DNA of 64,000 nt from Chloroflexota bacterium (GTDB taxonomy: Bacteria; Chloroflexota; Anaerolineae; CG2-30-64-16): positions 2,950 to 66,949 of the forward strand of contig VGOD01000005.1 in NCBI GenBank assembly GCA_016876015.1, read 5' to 3'. The position numbers and the translations under genes are program-made. Under the pieces are notes generated by a model. It made no database searches. It was given only the letters and a program-made list of their open reading frames with translations, and was not told where the DNA came from. Positions 29,150-64,000 of this stretch are shown piece after piece; the stretch's first letter is position 1; each line of letters begins with the position of its first letter.

Positions 29150-29278
29150 CCGGGAACGCGTGAACTCGCGGTGTGGGTGACAGTGCGCGCGCCACGCTGT
29201 GCCATATTCGACAACGGGCTTGCCGATTCATCGCCGCTGTGCTACACTGATGGCGTTAGAATGGTAGGAGGCGGCGCG

Positions 29279-29428
29279 ATGCCGTTCCAGGCGAATGAGT
29301 TATATGAGATTCAGGATCATATCTTCGAGGGGCTAACGTACCAAGTCTATTTTGCGCTGCAGGAAGCCAGTCAAGATGCGCTGTGGGAGCGGATCTTTGC
29401 CGAGGATGACGAGAGGAAAGGCCTATGA
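29279..29428 (+). CDS. Small hypothetical ORF (49 aa) translationally coupled to the next gene
   Basis: ATG 29279 MPFQANELYEIQDHIFEGL. The stop overlaps ATG 29425 (ATGA). TGCTACACT -10 at 29240-29248 upstream. Confidence 0.3.
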   Translation: MPFQANELYEIQDHIFEGLTYQVYFALQEASQDALWERIFAEDDERKGL

Positions 29429-30269: not shown

Positions 30270-30290
30270 TTGCGGCATTCCAGGCGCGAT

Positions 30291-30319
30291 TTGACTCGCA
30301 CATTCACTTCTGGAATACT
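30291..30319 (+). promoter_or_regulatory. Candidate promoter of the STAND gene
   Basis: TTGACT (30291-30296), 17 nt ending in TGG, AATACT (30314-30319), about 190 nt before ATG 30507. Confidence 0.35.
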
Positions 30320-30506
30320 CTTATCGTTGTCCCTGGTATCGGTAATTGTGAGGCCGCGTCGCTCGCCGGTCTCTTCAACGTTTCCTCTTTGATGCGCACG
30401 CAGACTCCTCATGGCCCGTGGGCGCTTGTGGCGGTCTGATAGGCTTACTTGATCAGAAGCCAGAGACGCCTGCAGTCGGTATGGTCCCGGACCGCGGAGG
30501 TGGACG

Positions 30507-47016: not shown

Positions 47017-47856
47017 ATGGTGAGCATAGTGGATTCAGTGCGTCAGCAGGCCGACAAGGCAGCTTTCGAAGCGGACAAGTTGATTCGTATCCGACGCGAG
47101 CAAGCCGTCATTGACCAATTGCGACGTGATGTCAAGACTCAACTTGATGCGCTCGGACAGACAGTTCTGACTGTTTATCGCAGGCGCGAAGTTGATCACC
47201 CAGAACTGACAGCGATCGGCCAACGGATTGACGCGTTGGATGGCCAGATCAAGCAGCACGAAAAGACCATCGAGCAAATCCGGGCCGAACAGTTGACCGC
47301 AACGCCATCTCAGCCCACCCAGCCCTGCCCGCGCTGCCGCAAGCCGGTTCCCGCCATAGCCACTTTTTGCCCCCACTGTGGCGCCTCCATCCCCAAGCCA
47401 GCCCCTGGCGGCACGCCTTGCCGCAACTGCGGTGTCTTGATACCGGCGAATGCCGGTTTCTGTCCCAACTGCGGCGCCAAGAAGGTCGCCGAGCCTTCGC
47501 CGGTCCGTTGTGTCAACTGTGGAGCCATTCTGACAACCGGCGCGTCGTTCTGTCCTGACTGCGGTACGCGCGTCGGACAGGTAGTCGCGTCTGTGATTCC
47601 AGCCACCATGGCGCCCACCAGCCCCGCGCCCTCTATTACCGTGCCCGCGCCTCCAGTGCCAGTTGCGGAAGGCGCCTCTGTGGCAGAGACCGAGACTGTC
47701 CCTGGTGGCTCGGACATGCAGTCACCAACTCAAGATCAGACCGAACCGGAGCCGATCGCTCCGGCAGGGCCGGCGGGGAAAGCTTGCTCCAACTGTCAGG
47801 CCAGTTTGCCGCAGGAAGCCGTCTTCTGCCCCGATTGCGGTACTCGCCTGGCGTGA
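47017..47856 (+). CDS. Cytoplasmic coiled-coil protein with four zinc ribbons
   Basis: CPRCRKPVPAIATFCPHCG, CRNCGVLIPANAGFCPNCG, CVNCGAILTTGASFCPDCG, CSNCQASLPQEAVFCPDCG. No TM helix. SD aaggagg. Confidence 0.7.
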   Translation: MVSIVDSVRQQADKAAFEADKLIRIRREQAVIDQLRRDVKTQLDALGQTVLTVYRRREVDHPELTAIGQRIDALDGQIKQHEKTIEQIRAEQLTATPSQPTQPCPRCRKPVPAIATFCPHCGASIPKPAPGGTPCRNCGVLIPANAGFCPNCGAKKVAEPSPVRCVNCGAILTTGASFCPDCGTRVGQVVASVIPATMAPTSPAPSITVPAPPVPVAEGASVAETETVPGGSDMQSPTQDQTEPEPIAPAGPAGKACSNCQASLPQEAVFCPDCGTRLA

Positions 47857-47883
47857 ACAGTATGGTGTGAGAGGAGGCTCTCG

Positions 47884-49482
47884 ATGCGTTGCAGCAATTG
47901 CGGCACAGAGAACGCCGAAGGCATCGCTTTCTGTATGAACTGCGGTACACGCCTGTCGTCGCTCGAACCATCTCAGTCGCGGACACAATCTTCCCCTAAA
48001 GCGCAAGGACTGCTGAATCGTCGGCTTTTGCTGTATATCCTGGGAGTTGTCGCGGTGCTGGCTCTCGTCGCCGTCATCGTTCGTCTCCTCACAGCGCGAC
48101 AGACTGGCATCGCCGTCACCCCCAAGCTCATCATTTCACAGAGCGAACGCGCCGGCCTGGTCTTGCAGACGTTGGACCTATCGGGTGCTACCAAACCCCT
48201 GCAGTTGGCACCTTTGCCGAGCCTTGACCTGAATGGACTGTCGGTTGATCGCGGCGCCTACCAGGATGGCTCATCCGCGCGATACCGGCAACGATGGACC
48301 TGGAGCCAGGCTTACGTCAGCCCGGACGGTAAGTATTGCTTGCTGGCCGTCAGGGAGGTCGGCGCGTGGACGCTTCTGCGCTTCAATCTGAATGACGGCG
48401 AGCCGCTGGAATTCCTGCGGGAGGCGCAGAACATCCAGGTGTTTGTGGACGCTTCCAGCCAACGATTCATCGTTCAGACCTCGACGCGGCGAGGCAGGAA
48501 CGTCCAGATCGGTGATCTGGCGGCGGGCAATCTGACCACGTTGATCGAGGGCGCTGATGAAGCTTCAGCCCGACCCAGCGCAGACTGGCAGTCTGTGGCT
48601 TACACTGCGCGCTATGGCGGCAACAGCGCCTACTATATGACTGGCATTGACGGACGTCAGTCTCGCGCCCTGGTGTCTTCTTCTGCAACAGCGGCGCCTT
48701 TCACCAGTGACGGCAAGCACGTGTATTTTTCGGCCGATGACACGCTGTACCGCAGGAACATGAACGGCGGTCTGCCCGAACGCCTGCTCACCGGCCGTGG
48801 CGGAAACCTTTCCGTCATTGGCGTCAATCCGCAGGGCGACCGGATATTGGTGATGGCGACGGGCGGCGGCGCTTCAGACCTGCAATTACTGCGCAGCGAT
48901 GGGAGCGAGCGCGTGAGCCTGGTACGCAATGTCAAGAGCGTCAAGGGCGCGGCGTTTTCGGCCGACGGTCAACGCCTCTTGGTCTGGACGAACGAAACGG
49001 ACGGCGACAGTCTACTGCTCTTCGATGGCCATGGCCAAAGCCAGCGAGCGGTCTTCCGAGCAGCGCAAAGCACCTTGATGCAGTGGCTCGCCAGTAACCG
49101 ATTCCTCTACGCGCTGCAAGAGCGTGATGGTCTGATGACGCTATATACCGAAACCGTTGATGGCAAGGAATCCAAACGCCTGGCCGAGGGGTATCAGAGA
49201 GTTGACCAGGTGGCGTCCAGCCCGGCCGGTTATCTTGCCTTCGCAGGCGTCAAGGATGGCAAAACGTTGCTGCACTCGATGAAACTGGGCCAGTCTCAAC
49301 CACAGTCGATTGATGAGACGAAGGGCCGCTTTGTATCCGTATGGCTGGCGCCTGGCGGCCGGGTCGTGTACCAGGTAGATGACAGCAATCGGTCGAGCAT
49401 CTATGTCGCGGATAACGATGGCAAGAACAGGCGCCTGCTGGCCGATAACGCTACCATCGTGGCCGCCAATCTTTATCGTTGA
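47884..49482 (+). CDS. Zinc ribbon - TM - TolB-like (PD40) beta-propeller protein
   Basis: MRCSNCGTENAEGIAFCMNCGTRL. TM LLLYILGVVAVLALVAVIV. Repeats such as VSPDGKYCLLA, FTSDGKHVYFS, FSADGQRLLVW. Confidence 0.7.
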   Translation: MRCSNCGTENAEGIAFCMNCGTRLSSLEPSQSRTQSSPKAQGLLNRRLLLYILGVVAVLALVAVIVRLLTARQTGIAVTPKLIISQSERAGLVLQTLDLSGATKPLQLAPLPSLDLNGLSVDRGAYQDGSSARYRQRWTWSQAYVSPDGKYCLLAVREVGAWTLLRFNLNDGEPLEFLREAQNIQVFVDASSQRFIVQTSTRRGRNVQIGDLAAGNLTTLIEGADEASARPSADWQSVAYTARYGGNSAYYMTGIDGRQSRALVSSSATAAPFTSDGKHVYFSADDTLYRRNMNGGLPERLLTGRGGNLSVIGVNPQGDRILVMATGGGASDLQLLRSDGSERVSLVRNVKSVKGAAFSADGQRLLVWTNETDGDSLLLFDGHGQSQRAVFRAAQSTLMQWLASNRFLYALQERDGLMTLYTETVDGKESKRLAEGYQRVDQVASSPAGYLAFAGVKDGKTLLHSMKLGQSQPQSIDETKGRFVSVWLAPGGRVVYQVDDSNRSSIYVADNDGKNRRLLADNATIVAANLYR

Positions 49483-49517
49483 GCGTCAACAGTCCTGTCA
49501 GTCTCAAGGAGGAAGCA

Positions 49518-51776
49518 ATGTTCCGCAGCCTCTTGGCCCGATGCCTGCTCATTACGATTTGTCTGCTGGCGCTTCTGCCGGTTCATGCTGCCCGCGCCGA
49601 TGAAGGCGTCTGGACGACTACCACAATCGCCTCTCTAGGCCCCCGCAGCCTGGCGATCAACCCAGAGAACCCGGGCATCGTGTATGCGTTGGCGTCGCAG
49701 TTGTTGGTCAGTCGCGACGGCGGCGCTGCGTGGGCGGTGGCGCCTGAAAGTCAGGCTGGCATCACACAACTGGTCTTCGATCCGTTGACGCCGGCCATCA
49801 TGTATGCTGTCGCCAACGGTCAACTGTTGAAACGCACCAGCGCCAGCCAGCCTTGGGCCCCGGTCGCGCCCGGTGTGTTGCAAGGCGTAACGAGCGTGAC
49901 GGTCAACCCGACCAATCCCAATCAGTTGTGGGTCGTCACCGGAACAGGCCTCTTTCGCTCCAACGATGCCGGCGTTTCCTGGGCCAGCGGTAAAGTGCCG
50001 GCGACCGGTCAGATAACTGCCTTTGCTTTGGGTCGGCCTGATCCAAAGCGCCTCTACGTGTGGAGTTCCGGTCAAGGTTTTTTCTACAGCCAGGATGATG
50101 GTGCAAGCTGGGTCAGGACCGGCAAAGGACTCGAAGGCAAAGGTGACCTAGAGATACTCCAGGTGGACGGTGCGACGGCCGGAGCTCTATATGCCCAGGT
50201 CAGGGGCGTGCTTCTGGCGTCTTCAGACCACGGCGCGAATTGGGCGCCGGTCACGCCGGCTGACCGCAACTACTACTCTAGCAATTTGTTGTGGACAACT
50301 GGCGACGGAGGCACCCTCTACACGACCAACGGCGCCATACTACATCGCAGCCGCGACCGCGGCGCAAGCTGGCAGGCCCTCCAACCGCCCAATTTCCGCA
50401 ACGTCGCTGCGCTGTTCGTGGATCCCAGAAGCCCCGCGGTATTATACGCGCTGGCCGATGGCACAGTGCTGAAGAGTTTCGATGCCGGCGCCAACTGGAC
50501 GCCGCCGCCAAAGCCCAGTCCTCAAATCATTGCTGCCCATCCGGCCGATCCGGCCATCCTGTTCGCGAATGGCGGCGGAGCCTTTCCTCAGGGGGCTTTG
50601 CGCAGTGGGGATGGCGGAGAAACGTGGGCGCGAATGACAGGCTGGCCTGAAAACCTGACATGGAGCGTAAGATACTTCACCCCCGGCAACCCGAATCGTA
50701 TGCTCGCCGGCGCCGGCAACGCGCTGCTGGTAAGCGCCGACTCAGGGCAGAGTTGGCAATCCACCGGAATGCCTACCACAGGCGCGCCACGCGCAATCGC
50801 CACGCAGCCGGGCAATGACGCCGTAATAATGGTCTCACTCGGCCAGGTGATCTTGCGCAGCGATAACAGCGGCGCGGCCTGGGCGTCGTCGCAGTTACCC
50901 AACAATGTGGCAGTCAACGCCTTGTGGATCGCGCCCGACAACGCGCGCCGCGTTCTGGCGGCCACGAATGCCGGCATCTACCGATCGGAAGACGGCGGCG
51001 CCACCTGGCAAATCGTGACGGGTTTGCCCCAGGGGAACTACGCACAACTGTGGCCTGGCGTTCAACCCGGGCAAGTCTACACCAACGGCGACAGAGGCGT
51101 GGCGGTCAGCGACGACGGCGGTCAACGCTGGAGCAACCAGGGCATCAGCCTCTCACCGGACAGATACCTCCAGGTGTGGCCCGATTGGCGCGACCCTGGC
51201 GTGCTGTACACGGTATTCCAGAACAGGGCATACGTCAGCCCCAATCGCGGACAGCATTGGGTACCCCTGGGGTCAGCCTTGCCGCGCCAGGTGCGTACCC
51301 TGGCGGTTGATGGCGCGACACCCCGCCACCTGTACATCAGCGACGACGCGCTCAACCTGTGGCGGTTCACGCTGCCGGCCATTCCACCCACACCCACCGC
51401 GACGCCGACGCTCACTCCAACTGCGACGCGCACGCCCTTGCCGACCCCGACCGCGACGCCCACGGCCACCTATACGCCTACCCCGCGGCCGCAGGCCAAG
51501 GTAATCGTGCTGACACCGCCGACGCCACTGCCCGTTTCGACGCAAAGTGGCTCCTCCAGCGGAGGCCCCGGCCTGCTGCCGATCCTCTTGGGCGGTGGCC
51601 TTATCATCGTTCTCGGGGCTGGCGCGTTCCTGTGGTTCCGCAGGCGTTCGGCAGTGACCCCGGTGGCGCCGCCGTCAGCCACGACGCATGTTGCATCCGT
51701 GTTCTGCCCGCATTGCGGTCAACCTAACCCCGGTGGAGGGCGTTTCTGCATGTCCTGTGGTAAGTCGTTAGTCTGA
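49518..51776 (+). CDS. Signal peptide - Asp-box (BNR) beta-propellers - PT linker - TM - C-terminal zinc ribbon protein
   Basis: MFRSLLARCLLITICLLALLPVHAARA. At least 11 S-x-D-x-G-x-x-W boxes (SRDGGAAW ... SDDGGQRW). PTPTATPTLTPTATRTPLPTPTATPTATYTPTP. TM LLPILLGGGLIIVLGAGAFLWF. FCPHCGQPNPGGGRFCMSCG. Confidence 0.75.
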   Translation: MFRSLLARCLLITICLLALLPVHAARADEGVWTTTTIASLGPRSLAINPENPGIVYALASQLLVSRDGGAAWAVAPESQAGITQLVFDPLTPAIMYAVANGQLLKRTSASQPWAPVAPGVLQGVTSVTVNPTNPNQLWVVTGTGLFRSNDAGVSWASGKVPATGQITAFALGRPDPKRLYVWSSGQGFFYSQDDGASWVRTGKGLEGKGDLEILQVDGATAGALYAQVRGVLLASSDHGANWAPVTPADRNYYSSNLLWTTGDGGTLYTTNGAILHRSRDRGASWQALQPPNFRNVAALFVDPRSPAVLYALADGTVLKSFDAGANWTPPPKPSPQIIAAHPADPAILFANGGGAFPQGALRSGDGGETWARMTGWPENLTWSVRYFTPGNPNRMLAGAGNALLVSADSGQSWQSTGMPTTGAPRAIATQPGNDAVIMVSLGQVILRSDNSGAAWASSQLPNNVAVNALWIAPDNARRVLAATNAGIYRSEDGGATWQIVTGLPQGNYAQLWPGVQPGQVYTNGDRGVAVSDDGGQRWSNQGISLSPDRYLQVWPDWRDPGVLYTVFQNRAYVSPNRGQHWVPLGSALPRQVRTLAVDGATPRHLYISDDALNLWRFTLPAIPPTPTATPTLTPTATRTPLPTPTATPTATYTPTPRPQAKVIVLTPPTPLPVSTQSGSSSGGPGLLPILLGGGLIIVLGAGAFLWFRRRSAVTPVAPPSATTHVASVFCPHCGQPNPGGGRFCMSCGKSLV

Positions 51777-51798
51777 TGATGATCTATCTGCCAGGAGA

Positions 51799-52353
51799 TT
51801 GATGATGACGCGATTCCTTCACAAAAGGGCTGGCTCAACCCGCATCGGAGCGGTCTTGGCGCTGTTTGTCGTGGCTGCCCTGCTCAGCGCATGTGGCGCC
51901 ATCCTGGAGACCGATCTCACCATCTATGCCGATGAGCGGTATGTCACCACGATGACGATCACGGCGCCGGCCGAGACGATCGCGATGATCGGCGGTCCGG
52001 CGGCCATGAAGTCGCAACTGGATCAGTGGGCGGCGGAGGCTAAGGCGCAGGGAGCGCAGGCCAAATGGTACCAGGGCAAAGCCAAACAGGCCGGCAATAC
52101 CGTCTACGTGCTCGAGATGAGCGGAAAGGGCTTCCAGTCCAAACTTATCCAGGGTACCTTTCGCCTGACCTGGGTGGATTACCAGGGACGCAAGGCGGTC
52201 AAATTCGAGATGTCGCCGCAGTCGCTCTCCAGCGGCATGGCGCTGGGAACCATCACGCTTCACGCTGGCGAGGTGCTATCCAGCAACGGCAGGAAGATCG
52301 GCAATGACGCTGTCCGCTGGGACAATCCCTCAGCAACATGCAAGCTATCGTGA
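51799..52353 (+). CDS. Lipoprotein, unknown function
   Basis: Lipobox ALFVVAALLSAC. 184 aa. Confidence 0.55.
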   Translation: MMMTRFLHKRAGSTRIGAVLALFVVAALLSACGAILETDLTIYADERYVTTMTITAPAETIAMIGGPAAMKSQLDQWAAEAKAQGAQAKWYQGKAKQAGNTVYVLEMSGKGFQSKLIQGTFRLTWVDYQGRKAVKFEMSPQSLSSGMALGTITLHAGEVLSSNGRKIGNDAVRWDNPSATCKLS

Positions 52354-52580
52354 TTCCCAAGGGGCAAACGAGCGCTCTGCTGATCGTGGCGATCCTGATC
52401 GTGCTGCTGATCCTGGCGGCCGGCGGCTATTTCGCCTATCGCCGCGGCTATCTGCGGACAAGTAGCGCGGCTGTTCCTGCGCCCGTCTCATCGAGCGGTT
52501 TCTGTCCCCACTGCGGACAGCCAACCCAGGCCGGAGCGCGCTTCTGTATGAGTTGTGGCAAGGAGATCCCGCCGCGCTGA
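52338..52580 (+). CDS. Small TM protein with C-terminal zinc ribbon
   Basis: TM ALLIVAILIVLLILAAGGYFAY, then RRGYLR and FCPHCGQPTQAGARFCMSCG. Confidence 0.55.
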   Translation: MQAIVIPKGQTSALLIVAILIVLLILAAGGYFAYRRGYLRTSSAAVPAPVSSSGFCPHCGQPTQAGARFCMSCGKEIPPR

Positions 52581-52589
52581 TGGCGGGTA

Positions 52590-52620
52590 GACCCTAAAGG
52601 TCTGCGAGACCTTTAGGGTC
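52590..52620 (+). terminator. Perfect 13-bp-stem hairpin (attenuator/terminator-like, weak U-tract)
   Basis: gaccctaaaggtc (52590-52602), tgcga, gacctttagggtc (52608-52620), followed by tct. Confidence 0.4.
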
Positions 52621-52658
52621 TCTGAGTGGATCCGACCTATCAGAAAGGAGTCACGACT

Positions 52659-53609
52659 ATGGCCTGTCCCAAGTGTGGCGTCCCCGACCCCGGCCCAGGG
52701 CTATTCTGCATGTCCTGCGGCTTCAAGCTGCCGGCATCGCCGGTCACGACTGCACCACCGGCAACCAGACCGCTGTCTGCGCCCGCAGCCGCGGCGCCGC
52801 TCGGCCCACCGGGCCCGGCCGCCGGTGTTCGGCCGGCAGCCATGCCCAGCCCTGCACAGCCAGTCTCGGCTCCCGCCGTTGGTCAGATGGGGAGCATGGG
52901 CACTGTGCCGGTCAGCATTTGGGGGCCGTTTGCGGGCTATGGCACACGCGGCCGGCACGTGTCGTGGCTGATCAACGACCAGGGCGACCGCGCCGACGCC
53001 TTACGCGATGCAGCCACCGCGCGCTTCGAGCGCCGAGAGATCCCGCGGGCCACCGTCCAGCGGATGACCCTGCTGCGCCAGGGCATCCTCGTGGACAGCC
53101 GTCCCTACTTCCTCATCCGCCGCGGCCTGGCGACCGCCGGACTCTATATCGCACGGTTTGGGCAGGATCTCTACGTCTCGCAGGTCACTTACTTCAAGGG
53201 GCCAATCAGCAGCATACGCGTCCTGCTCGTTGCGTTGATGGCGCTTTTCATCATCGTCTACCCACCGATATACAACAACGCCCTGAGCAGCGTCAACCTT
53301 AATCTGCTGGGAGGCTCGGTCTCGGGTCTCGACAGCCTCATGACCCTGACTTGTTGTCTTGGCCCTATCTATCTGCTGGACTATCTTGCGTTGGGCCTGT
53401 TAGTCTTGTTCAGCGCCTACAAATGGCTGACGGAAAAAGACCTGCTGGCCGCGCTGCGCGTGCCGCCGAACGAATTCGACACCGACGACATCGTCGCCCT
53501 GGAGAAGTCAGTCGAACAGACGGTGCGTGAAGCGCTGGATGTGGTAGGCATCGAGCAGCGGCTGATGCCTCAAGCAGCCGAGTACGGCATGCGTCGCCGT
53601 CTGATCTGA
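52659..53609 (+). CDS. Zinc ribbon - Pro-rich linker - globular region - polytopic membrane protein; upstream partner of the ATPase
   Basis: ATG 52659 MACPKCGVPDPGPGLFCMSCG. SD aaaggag. TM segments VLLVALMALFIIVYPP and LGPIYLLDYLALGLLVLFSAY. Ends 8 nt before ATG 53618. Confidence 0.6.
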   Translation: MACPKCGVPDPGPGLFCMSCGFKLPASPVTTAPPATRPLSAPAAAAPLGPPGPAAGVRPAAMPSPAQPVSAPAVGQMGSMGTVPVSIWGPFAGYGTRGRHVSWLINDQGDRADALRDAATARFERREIPRATVQRMTLLRQGILVDSRPYFLIRRGLATAGLYIARFGQDLYVSQVTYFKGPISSIRVLLVALMALFIIVYPPIYNNALSSVNLNLLGGSVSGLDSLMTLTCCLGPIYLLDYLALGLLVLFSAYKWLTEKDLLAALRVPPNEFDTDDIVALEKSVEQTVREALDVVGIEQRLMPQAAEYGMRRRLI

Positions 53610-53617
53610 CCCTGCCC

Positions 53618-56374: not shown

Positions 56375-56470
56375 TGAGCTACGCGATCCGGGCGATCCAG
56401 GGGGCAGCTGACGCGGCGTGGGGAGCCATGACAGAGGCGGTACGCTCAGTGTGACGGAGTGAAACCGGCG

Positions 56471-56896
56471 CTAAACGCCGGCCAGGGCATGTTGGAGCAC
56501 GCGGCGGGTCAGGCTGGGGCGCTCGTCGGTGGAGGTGGAGGGCAAGGCTTTATCCTTGAGCTCATCTTCCAGGATAAAGTGCGCGTAGGCCCAACTGAAC
56601 GCCTCGTGCAGCGGCACGTCGCGCAGCCCGGCTTGCGGCACGTCGAATCGCTCACCGGCCAGCAGCAATCGCAGCCCCCAGATGACGGCTGGGTAGGTCT
56701 TGTGGAGGTTATAGGCAATCCAGGCAAACGGGCGGTCCTCGCCGTCGCGATAATCTGCCATCAGGTCGAGAATGGATGTATCGCCGTACCCGCGGCTGTG
56801 AATGCTTGTGTCGGTTCGCTGGCGGGTTGGGTCCACGGCGATAGCCTCCACCATACCGGGTTCTTGAAAAAGGAGGTGTAGTTCTCGTCTAGCCAT
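56471..56896 (-). CDS. Hypothetical protein (second gene of the inserted cassette)
   Basis: 141-aa ORF, 8 nt downstream of 56905..57390 on the minus strand. No recognisable motif. Confidence 0.45.
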   Translation of the reverse strand: MARRELHLLFQEPGMVEAIAVDPTRQRTDTSIHSRGYGDTSILDLMADYRDGEDRPFAWIAYNLHKTYPAVIWGLRLLLAGERFDVPQAGLRDVPLHEAFSWAYAHFILEDELKDKALPSTSTDERPSLTRRVLQHALAGV

Positions 56897-56904
56897 ACTT
56901 CACC

Positions 56905-57390
56905 TTACAAGCCAAACTCGCGCGACCGCTTGCCCGGAGCAATGTACCACACCGCGATCGTCTCAGCATCGCGCGCGCCTTTGACCTTGCCGCTTTCCTG
57001 TGAATGAAAGTTGTATAGAAACTTGACACCTTGCCGGAACTTGATGACTGCTGCAACCAACTCGTACTCATGCCCAGGCTGAAGATAGATGCGCTTGTAG
57101 TAAATCAACGTGTCGTCCGGGCTGGCGTAGTCGTAGACCACGATGTCAGGATCTGCCAGAACGTCAGGAAGGCGTGCCAACTCGTCTATCAGGTCAAAAC
57201 GCGATTTGCGCGCCAGCGAATCGTGTGCGTAGGCCAGACCCTCTGCTGTGACGTATACCGGTTCGCCGTGCACGTCGGTGACAACATACGCGACACGCTG
57301 AACGCGTTCGCGGCCTTTGTTGTCCACGACAACGATGGACGCTTCAGCGGCCGCAGGCCGGCGCACGGTTGGTTTCTGTGTGGCTGGCAT
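56905..57390 (-). CDS. Hypothetical protein, possibly Barnase/EndoU/RelE-like (PBECR-type) nuclease
   Basis: LIDELARLPDVLADPDIVVYDYASPDDTLIYYKRIYLQPGHEYELVAAVIKF resembles the core of phage-associated PBECR nuclease domains. Weak call. Confidence 0.4.
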   Translation of the reverse strand: MPATQKPTVRRPAAAEASIVVVDNKGRERVQRVAYVVTDVHGEPVYVTAEGLAYAHDSLARKSRFDLIDELARLPDVLADPDIVVYDYASPDDTLIYYKRIYLQPGHEYELVAAVIKFRQGVKFLYNFHSQESGKVKGARDAETIAVWYIAPGKRSREFGL

Positions 57391-57395
57391 ATCTT

Positions 57396-57424
57396 ATCAT
57401 AGGCGCAATTCGGATTTCTGTCAA
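57396..57424 (-). promoter_or_regulatory. Promoter of the inserted cassette (near-leaderless)
   Basis: Minus strand: TTGACA (57424-57419), 17 nt (gaaatccgaattgcgcc), TATGAT (57401-57396), 5 nt, ATG 57390. Confidence 0.5.
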
Positions 57425-57500
57425 GACGCATATCGGAGAAACGCCCGTGCCACGCGACATATCTGACATCGAAGCCGTGGAGCACACTATCAAGCTGGGC

Positions 57501-57659
57501 GATTGACTTCCCGTTCATCGAACATATACTGATCGGAAATGAATTCAGTGCATTAAAGTCAAGCCGAGGCCTCGACGCCAATGCACTCATTTGATTTCCG
57601 AGCAGTATATACGCCGCGCGTTCGTGCGCGCGGTTGAGGCATTGCCTACAAACGGATAA
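57501..57659 (+). repeat. Direct repeat DR2 (displaced old 3' end of the ATPase gene, itself split by a small MITE)
   Basis: gattgacttcccgttcatcgaaca + 85-bp insert + tacgccgcgcgttcgtgcgcgcggttgaggcattgcctacaaacggataa. Aligns to 56299-56374. Confidence 0.75.
57525..57609. mobile_element. 85-bp palindromic MITE-like insert
   Basis: tatactgatcggaaatgaattcagtgcatt ... aatgcactcatttgatttccgagcagtata, with central palindrome cgaggcctcg. Confidence 0.55.
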
Positions 57660-57683
57660 CCTCAGCCATGAAAGGAGTTTCCC

Positions 57684-58265
57684 ATGAAATGCCCGAATTG
57701 TGGCGCACCTGATGCTGGACCTGGGTCGTTCTGTATGGCCTGTGGCGCAAAACTATCAACGGCAACCACGGCAGTATCTCCACAGGCGCGGACGCCTTCA
57801 TCGGCGCCGAGCGGAGAAGCGACGTCTCCCCCAGGCGCTCCACAGCCAATAGATACGCACTCTAGCCGTTGGTGGCTCGGGGAAACTCAAGACGGTGTCG
57901 CGCCAGTTGTTCTGCCGACGGCGATCACTACTACCTCAACTGGTCCATTGAAAACAATCCATCGCATCGCCATCGGCTCCGTCTTCAAAGTTACCTTTGT
58001 AATCTACGCTCTACTCCTCGGTCTCTTCGGCTGTCTCTTCATGGTGCTCCCTGGGCTGTTCGGCGCTAGCCTACTGGGTGGTTTGGCCGGACGGGATAGT
58101 GACCTGGCCTTGCTGGGCGGCAGTTTCATCGGAATCCTAATCTCCTACGTCTTGCTCGTCGCGCTTGGCGCGTTCCTGCAAGGCATCTTCACGGTGATCG
58201 CCGCGTTCATCTACAACCTCGCCGCGCGTTGGGTCGGCGGCATCCAGGTTGAATTGCAGGAGTAG
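57684..58265 (+). CDS. Zinc ribbon - Pro/Ser linker - 3-4 TM membrane protein
   Basis: MKCPNCGAPDAGPGSFCMACG. Hydrophobic C-terminal half (VFKVTFVIYALLLGLFGCLFMVLPGLFG...). Confidence 0.65.
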   Translation: MKCPNCGAPDAGPGSFCMACGAKLSTATTAVSPQARTPSSAPSGEATSPPGAPQPIDTHSSRWWLGETQDGVAPVVLPTAITTTSTGPLKTIHRIAIGSVFKVTFVIYALLLGLFGCLFMVLPGLFGASLLGGLAGRDSDLALLGGSFIGILISYVLLVALGAFLQGIFTVIAAFIYNLAARWVGGIQVELQE

Positions 58266-58272
58266 CAGAGCG

Positions 58273-58482
58273 ATGCCGATAGAGCAACTGGCCGTCGAAG
58301 CCCCCATCAGCGCCGCCAGGCTGACGGCGAATACGATCAAGGACATCTGGTCGGTGATGGACGCCGCCGCGGAGAAGCCCGCGCCGACGCAGTATCTCGG
58401 CGCGAAGGCGATCCAGGCCATTCAGGGCGTAACCGACCAGGCGCAAAAAACTGTCAATGCCGCGGTCAGCGCGGCGTCGTAA
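58273..58482 (+). CDS. Small hypothetical protein
   Basis: ATG 58273 MPIEQLAVEAPISAARL, 69 aa. Tightly packed between neighbours. Confidence 0.35.
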   Translation: MPIEQLAVEAPISAARLTANTIKDIWSVMDAAAEKPAPTQYLGAKAIQAIQGVTDQAQKTVNAAVSAAS

Positions 58483-58494
58483 ATAGGAGGTCTC

Positions 58495-58872
58495 ATGGCA
58501 TCCGACACGAAAGACGCCCAGGACGCCCAACGTCCCAGCGATACCGGTCAGACGCAACCGCGCCTGAACCGGCCACAAACCGAAGCAGGAAGACGCGCAA
58601 TGCAGGGAGGGGACAGCGACCTCGCGGGCCACCAGGAGCGTCTGAATCAGGTCAAGACCGAAGCCTCGGCTCGCGACGCAGCGGAACGCGCGGCGTTGGA
58701 GCGCAAGAAAGCTGAGGAATCCCCCGATGCTGCCAGCCAGACCGATCGCCGACACGCTATTGGCGACGCAGGGTTGGCGGAAAAAGTCGAGTCCGGCCCA
58801 GAAAAACGAGAGAAAGAAGTATTCACAGGCCCGCCGGAGGCACGCGAGGGCCATCGCAAACCAGAAGGATAA
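58495..58872 (+). CDS. Disordered Lys/Glu/Asp-rich protein sharing an N-terminal motif with 60188..60994
   Basis: MASDTKDAQDAQRPSD...EAGRRAMQGGDSD versus MPKDTQDSKAPRD...DKGRRAMQGAPDD. Confidence 0.45.
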   Translation: MASDTKDAQDAQRPSDTGQTQPRLNRPQTEAGRRAMQGGDSDLAGHQERLNQVKTEASARDAAERAALERKKAEESPDAASQTDRRHAIGDAGLAEKVESGPEKREKEVFTGPPEAREGHRKPEG

Positions 58873-58909
58873 CGGCTCCTTCGCCACACAAGCATCTCGA
58901 GAGGCGTAT

Positions 58910-60172
58910 ATGGCTACTTTTGCTCGTCGCTATGCACCCGCGTGCATCGTGGCGCTGCTGTTGTGGATCGGCGTCGGTTCAACTGTTTGGGCAGCGCCCG
59001 TTATTCCCACCTGGCGCGAACGCCTTTGGTGCGATGCGGCCGCTCAGAAACATAGAGGGTTGGAGTACTGCACCGCGGCGGCGGGTCAGGTGCATGTGGT
59101 TGTTGTGGATCTACAAAGTCCCGGCATCGGGCTGGAGTATGTCATCGCCGAGGGGCTGAACAAGACTGGCCAGTTCGGCGAATGTCAAGATGTGAACGTT
59201 CCGGCATACGGCCCCGTGCGCGGCGGATGCGCCGACAAAACCAACCCCGCCTATTATCCGGTGATGCCGTTGGATCGGGCTGTTGAGATCGGCAAGAGCC
59301 GCACTACGAACCTGGCGGTAGTAATCAACAGCGACTATGGCGCCGGCGACCAGGGTAAACCGGGCGAGTTTCGAGGGCACGGCCCCGAAGGGCTGACGGT
59401 TGTGCGCGGTACCCGCCTGGATGGCCCGACCAACGGCGACAAAGATATCAACGCCATCAACCGTCCCTGGCTGGCTGTCAGCCGTGATGCGCCTCTACGA
59501 GCCGAACTCAGCCAACTTGCGCAAGACGACGGTGGCAAGGCCGCCTGGGTCTATACCGGCGTGGGCGGCGGGCCGTGGTTAATCCGCAGCGGTGTCATTC
59601 AGACTGAAGACATCCAGACCTGCCGGAACTGCCCCGGCTCTTGCTACGAAGGCGCGGTTCAAACCGCAGTCGGACTCTCCCAGGATCACCGTTGGCTGTT
59701 TCTCGTGATAGATTCCCGCAAGGGCAAGCTGATGGACACGGCGCAGTTCATGCGCGAGCAACTGGCCGCCTGGGATGCTATCAAGTTCGACGGCGGCGGC
59801 TCCTCGCAACTGTGGTACAGCGGCCAGTTCATCGCTCGCGGCGATGGCCGCCAGCTTTCACAATACCTGGCCGTCATTGCGCCGCCCGGTTCCGGTATTC
59901 AGGATACCGTTCCCTCGCCTTCTCTGACCGATCAGTTGAAGGCGCTGATCGAGCGCCTGCGCCAGACCGCCGAGCGCCAGCTTGACAAGTGGCGCCAGCA
60001 AGCCGAGGAGGCGGTGAGGCGGTGGGTGGCGGAGCTGGAACGGCAAGCGTCCGAGTGGCTCCAGCGGGAACTGGAGCGCCAGGTACAGAGCCTGGTTGAG
60101 CAGGTCTGCGGCAGCGCGCTGGCACCGATGGCGTTGGTTGTCTGGCTGACAACGCGGCGTCGCAGAAGATGA
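58910..60172 (+). CDS. Phosphodiester glycosidase (DUF2233/NAGPA-like) with signal peptide, C-terminal coiled coil and TM anchor
   Basis: ATG 58910 MATFARRYAPACIVALLLWIGVGSTVWA. VVVVDLQSPGI, AVVINSDYG, GGGPWLIRSG, RTAVGLSQDHRWLFLVIDSRKG, AIKFDGGGSSQLW. C-terminal ALAPMALVVWLTTRRRRR. Confidence 0.6.
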   Translation: MATFARRYAPACIVALLLWIGVGSTVWAAPVIPTWRERLWCDAAAQKHRGLEYCTAAAGQVHVVVVDLQSPGIGLEYVIAEGLNKTGQFGECQDVNVPAYGPVRGGCADKTNPAYYPVMPLDRAVEIGKSRTTNLAVVINSDYGAGDQGKPGEFRGHGPEGLTVVRGTRLDGPTNGDKDINAINRPWLAVSRDAPLRAELSQLAQDDGGKAAWVYTGVGGGPWLIRSGVIQTEDIQTCRNCPGSCYEGAVQTAVGLSQDHRWLFLVIDSRKGKLMDTAQFMREQLAAWDAIKFDGGGSSQLWYSGQFIARGDGRQLSQYLAVIAPPGSGIQDTVPSPSLTDQLKALIERLRQTAERQLDKWRQQAEEAVRRWVAELERQASEWLQRELERQVQSLVEQVCGSALAPMALVVWLTTRRRRR

Positions 60173-60187
60173 TCGTGAGGAAGTACG

Positions 60188-60994
60188 ATGCCGAAAGACA
60201 CGCAAGATTCGAAGGCTCCCCGTGATATCGCCGAAGCGAAAGCGCCAGCCGAGGCTGCGCCGCCCAAGCTGAGCGATAAGGGGCGACGCGCCATGCAAGG
60301 GGCTCCAGACGACGCGGCAGAGAAGACGCTCGATCGGGGCGAGATGCGCAGCGTGACGGCACAGGCCGACCGCGAGGTGTCGCCACCGAAGTCCAAGCGT
60401 CCGACAGAAAACCAGATCACAGCCTATCAACACAAAATGCAGGGGCAAATTGCAGAGGAGTCGCTCAACTCAATCGGCGCTGAATCGTTCAATGACTTCA
60501 AGCCTAACGCTCCGGTGTACGACGCCCTGCTGGCTGAGAAGGGGGGATTCGAGGCGGCCTCGGTGAAAACGCACATGCCTTCGCAGAAACATCCTGACGC
60601 CTATCTGGCACATTATGCGCACGATCTGCGCGTCGCAACGGGCGCAACGGAGGCCAAGAGCGGAAAATACGCAGGCATGACTGGGCCGACCTTTGCCGCC
60701 GAGGCGCTGAACAGCCTCGACGATCTGCCAGACGCCCTCAAGAACATCCCGCCCAAGCAGATGGAGACGCGGCTTAAGCAAAACGCCAGTGTGCGTATTC
60801 CTGCGGACCACGTTGGACGCGCCCGCACCTATGTATTTAAGCAGGCGACAGCCCGTCCTGTGCAGTATGGCTTGCCGGCCGGTGCCGGCGCCGACGAGGT
60901 ACAGCAACTCGCTGACCGGATCAAACCGTTGCCGGTAACATCCGACCAAATCAAGGCCGCCGTGGGCAGGCGGCGCCAGGCGCTGAGTGGGTGA
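60188..60994 (+). CDS. Hypothetical protein: disordered N-terminus plus globular domain, possibly PD-(D/E)xK-like
   Basis: GQIAEESLNSIGAESFNDFKPNAPVYDALLAEKGGFEAASVKTH has the spacing of G..E / D / E..K nuclease-fold motifs. Weak call. Confidence 0.4.
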   Translation: MPKDTQDSKAPRDIAEAKAPAEAAPPKLSDKGRRAMQGAPDDAAEKTLDRGEMRSVTAQADREVSPPKSKRPTENQITAYQHKMQGQIAEESLNSIGAESFNDFKPNAPVYDALLAEKGGFEAASVKTHMPSQKHPDAYLAHYAHDLRVATGATEAKSGKYAGMTGPTFAAEALNSLDDLPDALKNIPPKQMETRLKQNASVRIPADHVGRARTYVFKQATARPVQYGLPAGAGADEVQQLADRIKPLPVTSDQIKAAVGRRRQALSG

Positions 60995-61022
60995 GAGCGC
61001 GTGGCCGGTCCCGCAAAATACA

Positions 61023-62339
61023 ATGGCTGATCAACTACTCTTCTGTCCCCACTGCGGCATGCAGCAACTCAAAACAGACGCGCGCTTCTGCCATGTCTGC
61101 GGGCAGCCGATCCCAGCGGTATCAGCGCACGCGGCCGAGCCTATTGTGCTCGCGCCCAAGCGACCGCGGCGGCTGAGCGCGTGGTGGCTGTTGCCCCTGC
61201 CCCTTGTGGGGGTTATGGCGTTGGTTCTCCTGGCCTGGGAACCAGCGCGCAGTCGGGTTGCTGACCTCCTGGCGGGCATCCGGCCGGCCGCGACCGCACC
61301 AGCCAGTCGTGAGCCAGACACTTCCGCACGAGCAGCATCCGGCGACGCGACCAAAGGCCCGACTCAGGGCGTCTCCGTGGCACCGACGGAGACGCCTGCC
61401 GCATCACCGACCGTCGCTGTTCCGCCGAGTGCCACCCCGCAGCCTTCGGTAACGTCGCTTCCAACCGCGACACCGCCGCCGACGGCAACGCTCGTGCCAA
61501 CGGCAACGCCCTTTACCGCCGTTACCAAACCTGAAATCGTTCACACCGGCTCCCTGGGGCTGATCGCTTTTTACTCAGAACGCGATGGAAACGCCGAGAT
61601 CTACATCATGGATGCCAACGGGGGGAATCAACGACGCTTGACTTCCGACCCCGCAAGCGACCTGTATCCGGCGCTTTCCCCCGATGGGCGGCGCATCGCG
61701 TTTGTTTCGCAACGCGATGGTAACTCCGAAATCTACCTGGTGGATTCGGACGGCAGCGATCTTGTCCGCATCACCAACGACGCGGCAGAGGACCGCTTGC
61801 CGGTCTGGTCGCCTGATGGTAAGCGGATCGCGTTTTCATCAGATCGCTCGGGCAATGCGAACCTGTATGTCATGGATGCCAACGGCCAGAACCTGGTTCA
61901 ACTAACATCTGGCCCAGAGCGAGACGGCCATCCAACCTGGTCCCCTGATGGTGCCCGGCTGGCGTTCAACACCGGCGACGAGCCGGCGTCATGGGAGATC
62001 GAGACGATCTCTGCTGCCGATGGGGCGCGCCGACGTCTGACGGAAAATGGTGTGATCGATTGGTCGCCCAATTGGGCCACGAATGGCAGCAAGATCTTGT
62101 TTCTCTCACGACGGTCTACGCAAAACGCCATCTACGTCGTGGCGCCCTACGGCGGCGAGGAACGCAAGGTGTTCGATGGCTTGGAGTCCATCTGGGGCGC
62201 CGTTTGGTCTCCGGATGGTCAACACATTGCGTTTACATCCAACGAGAGCGGGCGCGATGAGATCTACGTGATTCGCTCCGATGGCAGCGATCTCCGACAG
62301 CTAACCTCCGAAGGAGGCGCCTACCCGAGTTGGAGGTAG
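61023..62339 (+). CDS. Zinc ribbon - TM - PT linker - TolB-like (PD40) beta-propeller protein
   Basis: MADQLLFCPHCGMQQLKTDARFCHVCG. TM WWLLPLPLVGVMALVLLAW. SPDGRRIAFVSQRDGNSEIYLVDSDGSDLVRITN and four or more similar PD40 repeats. Confidence 0.8.
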   Translation: MADQLLFCPHCGMQQLKTDARFCHVCGQPIPAVSAHAAEPIVLAPKRPRRLSAWWLLPLPLVGVMALVLLAWEPARSRVADLLAGIRPAATAPASREPDTSARAASGDATKGPTQGVSVAPTETPAASPTVAVPPSATPQPSVTSLPTATPPPTATLVPTATPFTAVTKPEIVHTGSLGLIAFYSERDGNAEIYIMDANGGNQRRLTSDPASDLYPALSPDGRRIAFVSQRDGNSEIYLVDSDGSDLVRITNDAAEDRLPVWSPDGKRIAFSSDRSGNANLYVMDANGQNLVQLTSGPERDGHPTWSPDGARLAFNTGDEPASWEIETISAADGARRRLTENGVIDWSPNWATNGSKILFLSRRSTQNAIYVVAPYGGEERKVFDGLESIWGAVWSPDGQHIAFTSNESGRDEIYVIRSDGSDLRQLTSEGGAYPSWR

Positions 62340-62392
62340 TAGCGGGTAGCAATACGGAAGCGATACTCGCTCAGTGACGGCGAGGAGCATAG

Positions 62393-63740
62393 ATGACCGA
62401 TCAGAGCCTGTTCTGCCCCTACTGTGGGGCACAGCAATTCAAGACGGAGGCCCGGTTCTGCCATGTCTGTGGGCAGCCGATCCCACGACCACCGGTAGGG
62501 CAGACTGCCCCGCCTTCGCGAAGAGGGGGTCGGGGGGTGGGTTATTTGCTCTTGCCGCCCATCCTCGTCCTGCTGCTAGCCGCCGCAACCTTTGCCTGGC
62601 AGCGCGGGCTGTTGGGATTGTCCGCGCGCTCTGCGCGCGCGGACGCCTGCAGCGGTCTCTGGTGGGTCAGCCCGCGCGTTGACCACGCCAGGCCAGCCAG
62701 GCAGCACACGCGGTGCGGCATCACCGTCGGTCTCACCGATCGAACCAACGCAGGCCAGCCGTCCGACTCCGTTGCCGGAGACGCGATTGCCCGTTGCCAC
62801 CGCTGCCCCGCCGCCGAGCACGCAACCTCCCCCCGGTACGGCCACTTCGCCGCCGACAGCGACGCCACTTCCGACTTCAACGCCCACGGCGAAGGCGAGA
62901 CCGGCCACGCCTACCCCGATGGTAGGGAAAGTGATTTTCGGCAGCGATCGCAGCGGCTTTGCCCATGTCTTCACGGTGGATGGCAATGGCAACGGCCTGC
63001 GCGCCGTCACCGGCGGCAACGAGTACTTCTGGGATCCGGTCCTGAGCAACGATGGCGCGCAACTGGCGTTCACCTCGAAAGTAGGAGGCAACACGGAGAT
63101 CTTCGTCGCCTATCGCGATGGGGGGTCCCGTCGCGCCATCAGCAATCATCCGGCCGAAGATGATCATGCATCGTGGTTTCCCGGCAACACGGGTCTGGCG
63201 TTTGCCAGCCGTCGGGATGGCCCGTGGGAGATCTATCGCATGGCCGCGGATGGCTCGAACGTGCGGCGTCTGACCTTCAACGGCGGCGACAACCGCTTCG
63301 TAGTCGTGTCGCCCGATGGCAGCCGGATCGCCTATGTCGCCCAGGGTGGACCGCATCCCAACGTTCAACTCATGCTGATGAACGCCGACGGCAGCGATCC
63401 GCGTCCTCTATTGACCTACAACTCGCGCCGGCAGCGCGATGATCCAGGACGTTTCATTTATCGGCCCGACTGGTCGCCCGATGGCGCGCAACTTGCCTTC
63501 GGCGCGGACGACGACGATGATGGGCTGATCAGTGTACTGGTGATCGCCGTCGCGACCGGCCAGGCGCAGCGCCTGATCCAGGATGGCAACAGCCCTGCCT
63601 GGAGTCCTGATGGGCAGCGGCTGATCTACAAGCCGGCCGGCGACCGGCAAATCCTGTACGTCGCCGACATCAACGGCACCCCGCTCTACCAGTTGACCGG
63701 CTCCGACTACAACGCCTGGTCGCCGGACTGGGCGCGCTGA
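62393..63740 (+). pseudogene. Tandem paralog of 61023..62339, frameshifted between TM and linker
   Basis: MTDQSLFCPYCGAQQFKTEARFCHVCG plus TM are in the frame of 62393. The PT linker and PD40 repeats (SNDGAQLAFTSKVGGNTEIFVAY...) are in the frame of 62592..63740. The switch is near the GCGCGCGC tract 62621-62641. Confidence 0.6.
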
Positions 63741-63764
63741 GGAATTGACCGAAGGAGACACGTC

Positions 63765-64000
63765 ATGACAGCACCAAACGTTTGCCCCAAGTGCGGCGCG
63801 CCCGTGTCCGAAACGGGCAGCCGATTCTGCATGGCCTGCGGCACGCCGCTGACGCCGGCCGCGCCGTTGCCTCAGACGCCGCAAACGCCGGTTCCCGTTC
63901 CTGAGGCGGCGCAGCCCAGGCCCGATATCAGGCCGGTCAAGGCCCCCGTTGGCGACAAACGGCCGCCATCTCCCCCGCCGGTGGTCAAGCCGCGTACGGG
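63765..64000 (+). CDS. Zinc-ribbon protein with Pro-rich linker, 3' partial at window edge
   Basis: ATG 63765 MTAPNVCPKCGAPVSETGSRFCMACG. SD aaggag. The frame is open to nt 64000. Confidence 0.6.
   Translation, partial: MTAPNVCPKCGAPVSETGSRFCMACGTPLTPAAPLPQTPQTPVPVPEAAQPRPDIRPVKAPVGDKRPPSPPPVVKPRT

Follow-up and report, generated by a model that had tools for sequence, protein, structure and literature searches.

The described machines closest to the locus reported here are type IV secretion of monoderm bacteria and the archaeal Ced system, type VII secretion (T7SSa, T7SSb and variants c-j, whose substrates are WXG100/LXG polymorphic toxins), and the HerA-based defence systems (Sir2-HerA/Nezha, DUF4297-HerA and MADS mad8). 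ABC transporters with a C39 peptidase export peptides with a double-glycine leader, whose consensus is L-S-x-x-E-L-x-x-I-x-G-G. The polymorphic toxin layout consists of a common N-terminal trafficking module, variable toxin C-termini and an adjacent immunity gene (Zhang et al. 2012, PMC3482391). In Gram-positive variants of type VII secretion, kinases, PPM phosphatases, FHA proteins and DUF5050 propellers recur as accessories (PMC11217815). The locus is a gene cluster that runs from position 47017 to the end of a 64-kb stretch of DNA from a Chloroflexota bacterium (contig VGOD01000005.1; the whole stretch is called the window, and positions are counted along it). Judged from its sequence and that of its relatives, the cluster may well encode a machine not described before that exports polymorphic toxins, with a VirB4/HerA-type ATPase as its motor and a shared N-terminal leader on its cargo, a reading to which we give a probability of about 0.5. 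More tentatively, it would form the core of a specialised protein secretion system of a type not yet described, in which zinc ribbons stitch the trans-envelope parts together in Chloroflexota and to which related machines belong in Acidobacteriota, Planctomycetota, Cyanobacteria and Melainabacteria. The region most likely covers the left and central stretches of an envelope machine that is conserved in Chloroflexota. No system-level match was obtained for any of the cluster proteins from PADLOC, NCBIfam, Pfam or PHROGs, and no description of the ATPase family, of its membrane partner or of the leader was found in the literature. This agrees with an earlier reading made from the letters alone (the sequence-only reading), which could match the gene set to none of the described systems for secretion, conjugation, pili or defence.

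The core of the cluster consists of three genes:

51799 to 52580, plus strand: g04/g05, a lipoprotein with lipobox LSAC, an LppM-like ectodomain, a transmembrane (TM) segment and a C-terminal zinc ribbon, split by a frameshift.
52659 to 53609, plus strand: g06, with an N-terminal ribbon, a low-complexity linker, a novel alpha/beta domain, a TM hairpin and a C-terminal helix.
53618 to 56374, plus strand: g07, a 918-residue P-loop ATPase of the VirB4/HerA class, whose N-terminal alpha/beta domain spans about 400 residues and which ends in a four-cysteine domain.

The ATPase has intact Walker A (GSGKT) and Walker B (IEEAH) motifs and matches the Pfam families HerA_C and DUF87. When its AlphaFold2 model (mean predicted local distance difference test score, pLDDT, 77.6) was compared with the PDB by Foldseek, the best match, collinear over about 900 columns, was full-length TrwK/VirB4 from the type IV system of R388 (E 6.5e-13), followed by the VirB4 C-terminal domain (template modelling score, TM-score, 0.64-0.67 on the target), HerA, DndH-C and TrwB. 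Four cysteines in its C-terminal domain (C-x2-C-x3-C ... C, residues 818-825 and 889, about 56069-56284) are invariant in all phyla and could bind zinc or an iron-sulfur cluster; no match to this domain was found by sequence among solved HerA or VirB4 structures. From Chloroflexota to Cyanobacteria and Planctomycetota, the N-terminal signature LPDFLxDHT, the P-loop core and the cysteines (C-x2-C-x3-5-C ... WC) are kept. Thus the ATPases form one orthologous family.

Related loci were collected by scanning with the ATPase and keeping one genome per species, which gave 68 loci, about 48 of them from Chloroflexota (denoted L and a number below). Each window protein was searched against these loci by tblastn, the open reading frames (ORFs) of the loci were clustered all against all, and a Pfam domain census was taken of 229 neighbouring proteins. 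The ATPase has hundreds of full-length homologues of 50-80% identity, named "hypothetical", "ATP-binding" or "DUF87". Full-length homologues of 46-81% identity occur in Anaerolineae, Caldilineales, Ardenticatenaceae, Promineifilum and Thermoflexales, the closest loci being those of HGW-Chloroflexi-1 (79%) and Candidatus Amarolinea aalborgensis (77%). Identity is 46-64% in Caldilineales, Ardenticatenaceae, Promineifilum, Thermoflexales and Anaerolineaceae and 31-41% in Cyanobacteria, Planctomycetota, Acidobacteriota, Obscuribacter and Verrucomicrobia. It tracks taxonomy, and one locus was found per genome.

The core (lipoprotein-TM-ribbon protein, g06 with its ribbon and two TM helices, ATPase) keeps its synteny in most of the Chloroflexota loci. 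The nearest relatives, L005, L008, L010 and L016, keep the order 47017, 49518, lipoprotein, g06, ATPase, 57684, and loci at 48-53% ATPase identity again contain multi-ribbon, ribbon-PD40, ribbon-beta-helix, ribbon-DUF3352 and ribbon-FHA-ABC proteins. The sequence-only reading had proposed a search for synteny in other genomes as its own test. Since the core and the accessory families recur across diverged loci, the cluster passed it.

g06 begins with an invariant four-cysteine ribbon and a variable Pro/Ala linker; these are followed by a domain with the motif WGPFAGYGxRGRHVSWL, two TM helices and a final helix with the motif PPNEFDxDDIVALEK. Given this layout around two TM helices, both termini are placed in the cytoplasm. 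The family alignment (A2) has 55 invariant columns, the four cysteines among them. No Pfam family matches g06, and its AlphaFold2 model (pLDDT 77) found no PDB fold at E<=1e-3 by Foldseek. A gene for this protein lies directly upstream of the ATPase gene, at a distance of about 1 kb, in about 30 of the 36 Chloroflexota loci that have upstream sequence. In Planctomycetota and Verrucomicrobia loci a two-TM protein of g06-like layout adjoins the ATPase; the similarity to g06 is weak (hhalign E 0.0019, probability 14%; blastp about 4e-4), and homology is suggestive only.

The lipoprotein was read earlier as two separate genes, at 51799 and 52338. Both belong to a single gene that a frameshift between 52320 and 52338 interrupts, its orthologues being single ORFs of about 258 residues that lie just 5' of g06 in about 19 loci. 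Its LppM match is weak (Pfam 8.8e-4).

The second line of evidence comes from two hydrophilic proteins encoded 3' of the ATPase:

58495 to 58872, plus strand: g11, 125 residues, hydrophilic, with an AMQG leader (hidden Markov model, HMM, 1.8e-13); small-cargo type.
60188 to 60994, plus strand: g13, 268 residues, with an AMQG leader (HMM 8.2e-16) and a conserved C-terminal domain.

The motif GRRAMQG, which the sequence-only reading had noticed in both of these disordered proteins, is indeed shared; what it had missed is that the motif ends the leader of a polymorphic cargo family. This leader is N-terminal, about 42 residues long, and reads M-x-D-T-x-D ... (K/R)-L-S-x-x-G-x-(R/K)-A-M-Q-G. It is encoded at 58495-58620 and 60188-60313, the only leader matches in the 64-kb window. 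A first HMM, trained on 4 sequences, picked up over 20 further ORFs, and a refined HMM found 35 ORFs at E<=1e-3. As to position, 32 fall 0-5 kb 3' of the ATPase and on its strand, 2 are farther downstream and 1 is upstream; none was found in the fetched loci on the strand opposite the ATPase or in other phyla. Of the 36 loci with sequence downstream, 23 contain at least one leader ORF. A word-indexed global search, for which a 42-residue profile is too weak, gave 1 match among 5.8 billion sequences.

The leader proteins are hydrophilic, 100-314 residues long and without signal peptides, and 33 of them fall into at least 17 unrelated C-terminal families. The C-termini include a Tox-GHH HNH nuclease (8e-19), a second HNH-like domain, SprT-like zincin, ParB_N-like and GNAT domains, and a Peptidase_C39_2 domain (9e-8, above the Pfam cut-off). 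The small type represented by g11, which has neither a signal peptide nor a Pfam family, also occurs 3' of the ATPase in L001, L005, L006, L007, L008 and L010. Relatives of g13 occur in L018, L027, L030, L032, L033 and L035, often as the first gene 3' of the ATPase. The C-terminal domain of g13 has the invariant residues E90, N107, Y111, D112 and S125-V-K127. A nuclease fold, suggested earlier as possible for this protein, gains no support from PDB or Pfam; g13 has no match there or among PHROGs, and the family alignment shows a D...SVK-type motif of unverified meaning.

Several leader genes are followed by a small ORF with a 4-nt overlap, as in L016, L021, L022 and L038. The coupled ORF encodes a YbjN protein in L016 (5e-7, above the cut-off) and a SUKH-1 protein in L022 (1.4e-4, under the cut-off); those of L021 and L038 are unassigned. 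In Acidobacteriota, the ATPase homologue of L062 (about 40% identity) is followed by a WHH/colicin-DNase toxin (5e-17) and a SUKH-1 protein (4e-21) at 13546-14351, and that of L052 (also about 40%) by a SUKH-1 protein at 13884-14354. The Microcystis locus L048 has a DUF4258 protein in the matching position 3' of the ATPase homologue. With L062, L052 and L048, the association of the ATPase family with toxin cassettes crosses phyla. Taken as a family across loci, the leader proteins thus have one N-terminal module joined to many C-termini, and an immunity gene 3' of the toxin is seen in relatives (L062; L022 under the cut-off; the overlapping ORFs of L016, L021 and L038).

YbjN-family proteins adjoin Tox-GHH leader proteins at 16279-16716 of L016 and at 12519-12944 of L003. 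The YbjN fold resembles type III secretion chaperones, so these neighbours could be export chaperones and not immunity proteins. A DUF3800 protein adjoins a leader protein in L007 (14019-14636), and an Rfam DUF3800-IX RNA lies in the window at 20364-20443 on the minus strand (57.6 bits against a gathering score of 36.8).

The remaining genes of the cluster encode mostly ribbon and envelope proteins:

47017 to 47856, plus strand: g01, soluble, with an N-terminal coiled coil of about 95 residues and four ribbons; no TM segment.
47884 to 49482, plus strand: g02, with an N-terminal ribbon, one TM segment (residues 48-66) and an extracytoplasmic DUF5050/TolB-like beta-propeller.
49518 to 51776, plus strand: g03, with a signal peptide, a BNR/Asp-box Sortilin-like propeller, a Pro/Thr linker, a TM segment and a C-terminal cytoplasmic ribbon.
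57684 to 58265, plus strand: g10, with an N-terminal ribbon and a polytopic DUF3566-like domain (Pfam 7e-6) of three TM-like segments.
58910 to 60172, plus strand: g12, a secreted phosphodiester glycosidase with a NAGPA domain (Pfam 2.8e-18; ORF label 58727) and a C-terminal TM anchor.
61023 to 62339, plus strand: g14, with a ribbon, a TM segment, a Pro/Thr linker and a PD40 TolB-like propeller (Pfam 1.9e-49; ORF label 60987).
62393 to 63740, plus strand: g15, a paralogue of g14 (ribbon, TM, PD40; Pfam PD40 2.3e-19), with a frameshift at about 62625-62641.
63765 to 64000, plus strand: g16, a ribbon protein truncated at the window end, with its 5' part present (Pfam Zn_Ribbon_1 1.4e-8).

The ribbons were defined as stretches of about 23 residues with four cysteines, C-x2-C-x(n)-C-x2-C, matching PF13240/PF12773. 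A six-frame scan of the window found 12 of them, of the type C-x2-C-x(10-11)-[F]C-x2-C, all on the plus strand between 47326 and 63839 and spread over nine ORFs, the same number and the same ORFs as in the sequence-only reading. Most of the copies score at or above the Pfam cut-off for Zn_Ribbon_1/DZR; those of 57684, 61023 and 62393 have the motif and score under it. No ribbon of this type occurs in the remaining 47 kb of the window, where the scan gave just three loose CxxC...CxxC matches without the signature. If 12 motifs were placed at random, the probability of all falling in the last 17 of 64 kb would be (17/64)^12, or about 1e-7. Across 48 loci (about 705 kb), 206 ribbon motifs share the strand of the ATPase and 4 are on the other; loci outside Chloroflexota have essentially none. 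Near the ATPase the density is 2-7 ribbons per 10 kb, against a guessed genome-wide background of roughly 0.1-0.3.

The positive-inside bias that was claimed for every membrane protein, with the ribbon in the cytoplasm, is clear for 49518, 52338 and 61023 and neutral for 47884 and 62393; for these two the ribbon-inside topology is a matter of domain logic. In 61023 the TM segment spans residues 53-71, with four Lys/Arg before it and two after. The earlier domain calls of PD40, BNR/Sortilin, NAGPA and HerA/DUF87 were matched in Pfam and NCBIfam, and the TolB-like call for 47884 proved weak (NCBIfam TolB partial match 1.8e-14, beside Pfam DUF5050 2.6e-8 and Zn_Ribbon_1 1e-7). g03 scores 200 bits against a cut-off of 175 for NCBIfam F510_1955, besides its Pfam BNR/Sortilin matches, and is syntenic upstream of the core in L005, L008, L010 and L016.

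Natural fusions point to what the ribbons may do. In six loci (L032, L033, L035, L041, L044 and L058) a ribbon is fused to the N-terminus of the ATPase. In L009 the ORF directly upstream of the ATPase, P0281 (934 residues), has a signal peptide, a BNR propeller, a Pro/Thr linker and a TM segment of the 49518 type that run straight into the g06 domain. Both the C-terminal ribbon of the 49518 type and the N-terminal ribbon of the 52659 type are deleted at the junction. Because P0281 has a peptide bond where the unfused proteins have two ribbons, the ribbons look like cytoplasmic joints; the pattern fits what would be expected if they normally join 49518-type and g06 proteins on the cytoplasmic face. 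They are not essential to the machine, since the partner proteins of L015 and the homologues in other phyla do without them. The docking role proposed in the sequence-only reading is favoured by both kinds of fusion, with ribbons dispensable in some members.

Compared with the motors of type IV and Ced, the ATPase is alike in its length of about 900 residues, its large N-terminal domain and its C-terminal VirB4/HerA P-loop domain. The TM hairpin of g06, encoded directly upstream, has the position and topology of VirB3, by analogy and not by homology, and the NAGPA protein, a wall-cutting candidate, recalls hydrolases of the VirB1/CwlT type. However, VirB6, VirB8, VirD4, a relaxase and a pilin are absent from the cluster, and Pfam detected no VirB6/VirB8, VirD4 or relaxase in the window cluster or among the 229 neighbouring proteins. 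g06 has no similarity in sequence or fold to VirB3 or any PDB chain, the four-cysteine C-terminal domain is unique to this ATPase, and the presumed substrates carry an N-terminal leader whereas type IV substrates have C-terminal signals. Finally, the locus appears chromosomal, tracks taxonomy and does not seem to move between genomes. A plasmid search with the ATPase matched DUF87 proteins (Streptomyces, Rhodococcus, Anabaena and others) with its P-loop half only; the contexts of these matches, uninformative "hypothetical" genes, gave no sign of mobility.

Type VII secretion resembles the cluster in another way. Both occur in single-membrane bacteria, and in both the membrane-associated ATPase belongs to the FtsK-HerA superfamily, immunity genes and polymorphic toxins that share an N-terminal module are encoded beside it, and a small conserved protein is co-encoded. 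Among the neighbours in related loci the census counted Ser/Thr kinases (15), FHA (8) and PP2C (3) proteins, together with PD40/DUF5050 propellers, LysM, YkuD and Peptidase_M14; the kinases, PP2C, FHA and DUF5050 proteins parallel the accessories of type VII variants (PMC11217815). The differences lie in the machinery itself. The present ATPase, with a single P-loop domain, lacks a TM segment and gives no FtsK_SpoIIIE match in Pfam, and the leader here is a short disordered peptide instead of a helical hairpin. Neither 58495 nor 60188 nor the neighbour census gave a WXG100 or LXG match, and Pfam found no EssB, EsaA or EccB/D/E homologue in the cluster. Membership of type VII was rejected for the single P-loop and the lack of a TM segment, the ATPase not being of the EssC type, and for the lack of WXG100/LXG proteins.

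The leader also recalls the double-glycine type. L-S-x-x-G-x-x-A-M-Q-G(-G) has the same spacing, with L at -12, S at -11, a hydrophobic residue at -4, G at -2 and often G at -1, which hints, by analogy, at proteolytic processing after MQG. Unlike the double-glycine systems, however, the core has no PCAT-type transporter, the residue after MQG is often not Gly, and the cargoes are proteins of 100-300 residues.

A working scheme can be drawn from these features. Chloroflexota are monoderm. An oligomer of the ATPase would be held at the membrane by the hairpin protein g06, as VirB3 holds VirB4, and would be associated with the lipoprotein. It would recognise the AMQG leader and power export across the single-membrane envelope, and the exported leader proteins, which in this window would be the products of 58495 and 60188, would serve antagonism between bacteria. 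The ribbons would act as cytoplasmic joining modules that recruit ectodomain proteins (propellers, beta-helix, a NAGPA-type wall enzyme) to the ATPase complex, and in relatives also regulators of the Ser/Thr kinase, FHA and PP2C types. A hub role may fall to the multi-ribbon coiled-coil protein, and the NAGPA glycosidase could open wall polymers.

Several points weigh against export. No channel-forming component was identified in the cluster. In this window 58495 and 60188 have no recognisable toxin domain or adjacent immunity gene, and 60188 is directly followed by a ribbon-PD40 gene. The loci were seeded from the ATPase and the leader survey covered these loci only; the refined leader HMM, unlike the first-round one, was built on the same loci that it searched; and the background density of ribbons in Chloroflexota is taken from this window only. 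In the ATPase, the N-terminal domain resembles VirB4 with a global TM-score of only 0.26-0.30, and the Pfam model CagE_TrbE_VirB gives no match. Hence the assignment to the HerA/VirB4 class made in the sequence-only reading holds as a class, by HerA/DUF87 and Foldseek matches, whereas membership of the VirB4 family is not supported. The two frameshifts raise the possibility of a decaying copy or of assembly indels. Finally, HerA-class ATPases with variable nuclease and peptidase effectors also typify cytoplasmic anti-phage systems.

This last point leads to an unlikely alternative, a membrane-associated anti-phage or abortive-infection system in which invader DNA is sensed or translocated by the HerA-class ATPase, which then releases or activates the AMQG proteins as cytoplasmic effectors (nucleases, peptidases, acetyltransferases), with the leader as a tether to the ATPase and not an export signal. 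A HerA-class core with diverse effector domains, nucleases included, is typical of defence; Foldseek matches the Sir2-HerA and DUF4297-HerA complexes; PADLOC gives partial matches to mad8 (1.7e-13) and to HerA models; and conflict genes lie near, with AbiEii in L001 and TIR, EAD7 and Peptidase_C11 upstream in the window. Against this, HerA_antiphage scores 17.5 bits where the cut-off is 800, and PADLOC matches neither a system nor a partner protein, the cluster having no Sir2, DUF4297 or NurA. The N-terminal domain is one of about 400 residues and not a HAS barrel. The ATPase has obligate membrane-hairpin and lipoprotein partners, with extracytoplasmic proteins around it and immunity-type genes beside the effectors; its identity follows taxonomy with one locus per genome, unlike patchy defence islands; and SUKH-1 with WHH/GHH pairs are the classic secreted polymorphic toxin layout (PMC3482391). 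The seemingly vertical, single-copy conservation would suit a housekeeping complex for envelope biogenesis or morphogenesis (wall polymers, sheath or septa in filamentous Chloroflexota), controlled by Ser/Thr phosphorylation, with the AMQG proteins as regulators or hitch-hikers. LppM-like, DUF3566, PD40, LysM, YkuD, Peptidase_M14, NAGPA, kinase, FHA and PP2C proteins nearby speak for it. We regard it as decidedly unlikely: the tight linkage of toxin-domain leader proteins and immunity-like genes to the ATPase would go unexplained, as would the toxin-immunity pairs beside Acidobacteriota ATPases, and the conserved core has no polysaccharide or peptidoglycan synthase.

That the best structural matches are the DNA translocases VirB4 and HerA raises the thought of a DNA-translocating apparatus, conjugation-like or with Ced-like uptake or exchange between filament cells. 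The partial NCBIfam match to CedD (4e-17) points the same way, but it covers about 70 residues and its 62 bits fall short of the 600-bit cut-off; neither the cluster nor the locus censuses contain a relaxase, a coupling protein or a protein of the VirB6/VirB8 or CedA type, and matches to conjugative plasmids are confined to the P-loop half. DNA transport is therefore very improbable. A chance aggregation of a lineage-expanded zinc-ribbon family, without common function, could appeal to the many kinds of Chloroflexota protein that contain Zn_Ribbon_1/DZR modules. It is effectively excluded by the synteny test, the core and several accessory families being syntenic down to 46% ATPase identity, and also has against it the strand bias of the ribbons, their confinement to 17 of 64 kb, and the ribbon-ATPase and propeller-g06 fusions.

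Wastewater sludge, sediments and soils are rich in Chloroflexota, of whose protein secretion and competition little is known; the closest genomes are those of Candidatus Amarolinea and its relatives, filamentous sludge bacteria. If the export reading is right, monoderm bacteria have an ATPase-driven route for toxin export that uses a dedicated leader and dedicated membrane partners and serves a large repertoire of polymorphic toxins. A function would then be given to a widespread unannotated family of "DUF87/ATP-binding" proteins and to partner families that lack Pfam models. The common, unexplained "zinc ribbon plus TM" architecture would be a modular cytoplasmic connector, with fusions pointing to partner pairs. 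The leader motif offers a handle for mining new toxin and immunity families.

The outer limits of the cluster differ in kind. Upstream of 47017 lie genes for a class A penicillin-binding protein, SurE, an aminotransferase, GT2 and a CBM_4_9 protein. Because these are unrelated, the left border is sound. On the right the cluster extends beyond the window, whose end is the border of the sequence and not of the cluster. As the sequence-only reading had it, all long ORFs with database support from 47017 onward are on the plus strand except for one inserted two-gene cassette (56471-57390). Its range of 8-80 nt for the gaps needs correction: 229 nt of noncoding DNA, with no Rfam match, separate the ribbon-DUF3566 gene from the first leader-protein gene (58266-58494). 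This gap may hold a separate transcription start for the cargo module. A scan for promoters and terminators gave counts no higher than in shuffled sequence, its sole informative result being a divergent pair at the cassette.

Homologues of g01, in which Pfam Zn_Ribbon_1 matches four stretches (5.6e-26), lie less than 10 kb from the ATPase in about 15 loci, in variable positions, and g01 may be a cytoplasmic hub. Its coiled coil was considered as PspA/ESCRT-like and gave no significant PDB match. An orthologue of g10 directly follows the ATPase in L008, L013 and L061. g12, a candidate wall-polymer-cutting enzyme, has TM segments at both termini and occupies an equivalent position in L001 and L016. 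Ribbon-PD40 proteins are found near the ATPase in about 17 loci. The second such gene of the window, 62393, was taken earlier as one ORF; its ribbon-TM part (62393) and its PD40 part (62592) are in different frames, and the 453-residue orthologue of L008 aligns with residues 1-86 in frame 2 and 82-453 in frame 3. The orthologue of g16 in L008 is a 647-residue ribbon/Beta_helix protein (62% identity over the part present), and a ribbon-DUF3352 protein comes next after it.

Three features interrupt the cluster between the ATPase and 57684:

56471 to 56896, minus strand: g08, a candidate immunity or antitoxin protein.
56905 to 57390, minus strand: g09, weakly PBECR3 RNase-like (Pfam 2e-5, under the cut-off).
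57502 to 57657, plus strand: a degenerate second copy of the ATPase 3' end, with an inverted repeat (arms of 40 nt) inside it.

Since the 57684 orthologue directly follows the ATPase in L008, L013 and L061, the minus-strand pair is an insertion and not a part of the machine. It was found elsewhere only in L005, in a different position and at 89-91% identity, and has a promoter-like site of its own (57424-57396). The last 73 or so nucleotides of the ATPase gene (56300-56372) are repeated at 57502-57527 and 57604-57657 with 87-88% identity, around an inverted repeat (57524-57563 and 57571-57610). From its sequence, the duplicate looks like the displaced old 3' end of the ATPase gene, a scar of the recombination that brought in the cassette. 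A plus-strand promoter-like site lies within the decayed copy at 57503-57530.

Farther upstream, 27512-33468 resembles an island of conflict systems:

27512 to 29146: a TIR_2 and BNR protein.
30507 to 32510: an EAD7 and TPR protein.
32074 to 33468: a clostripain-like Peptidase_C11 protein.

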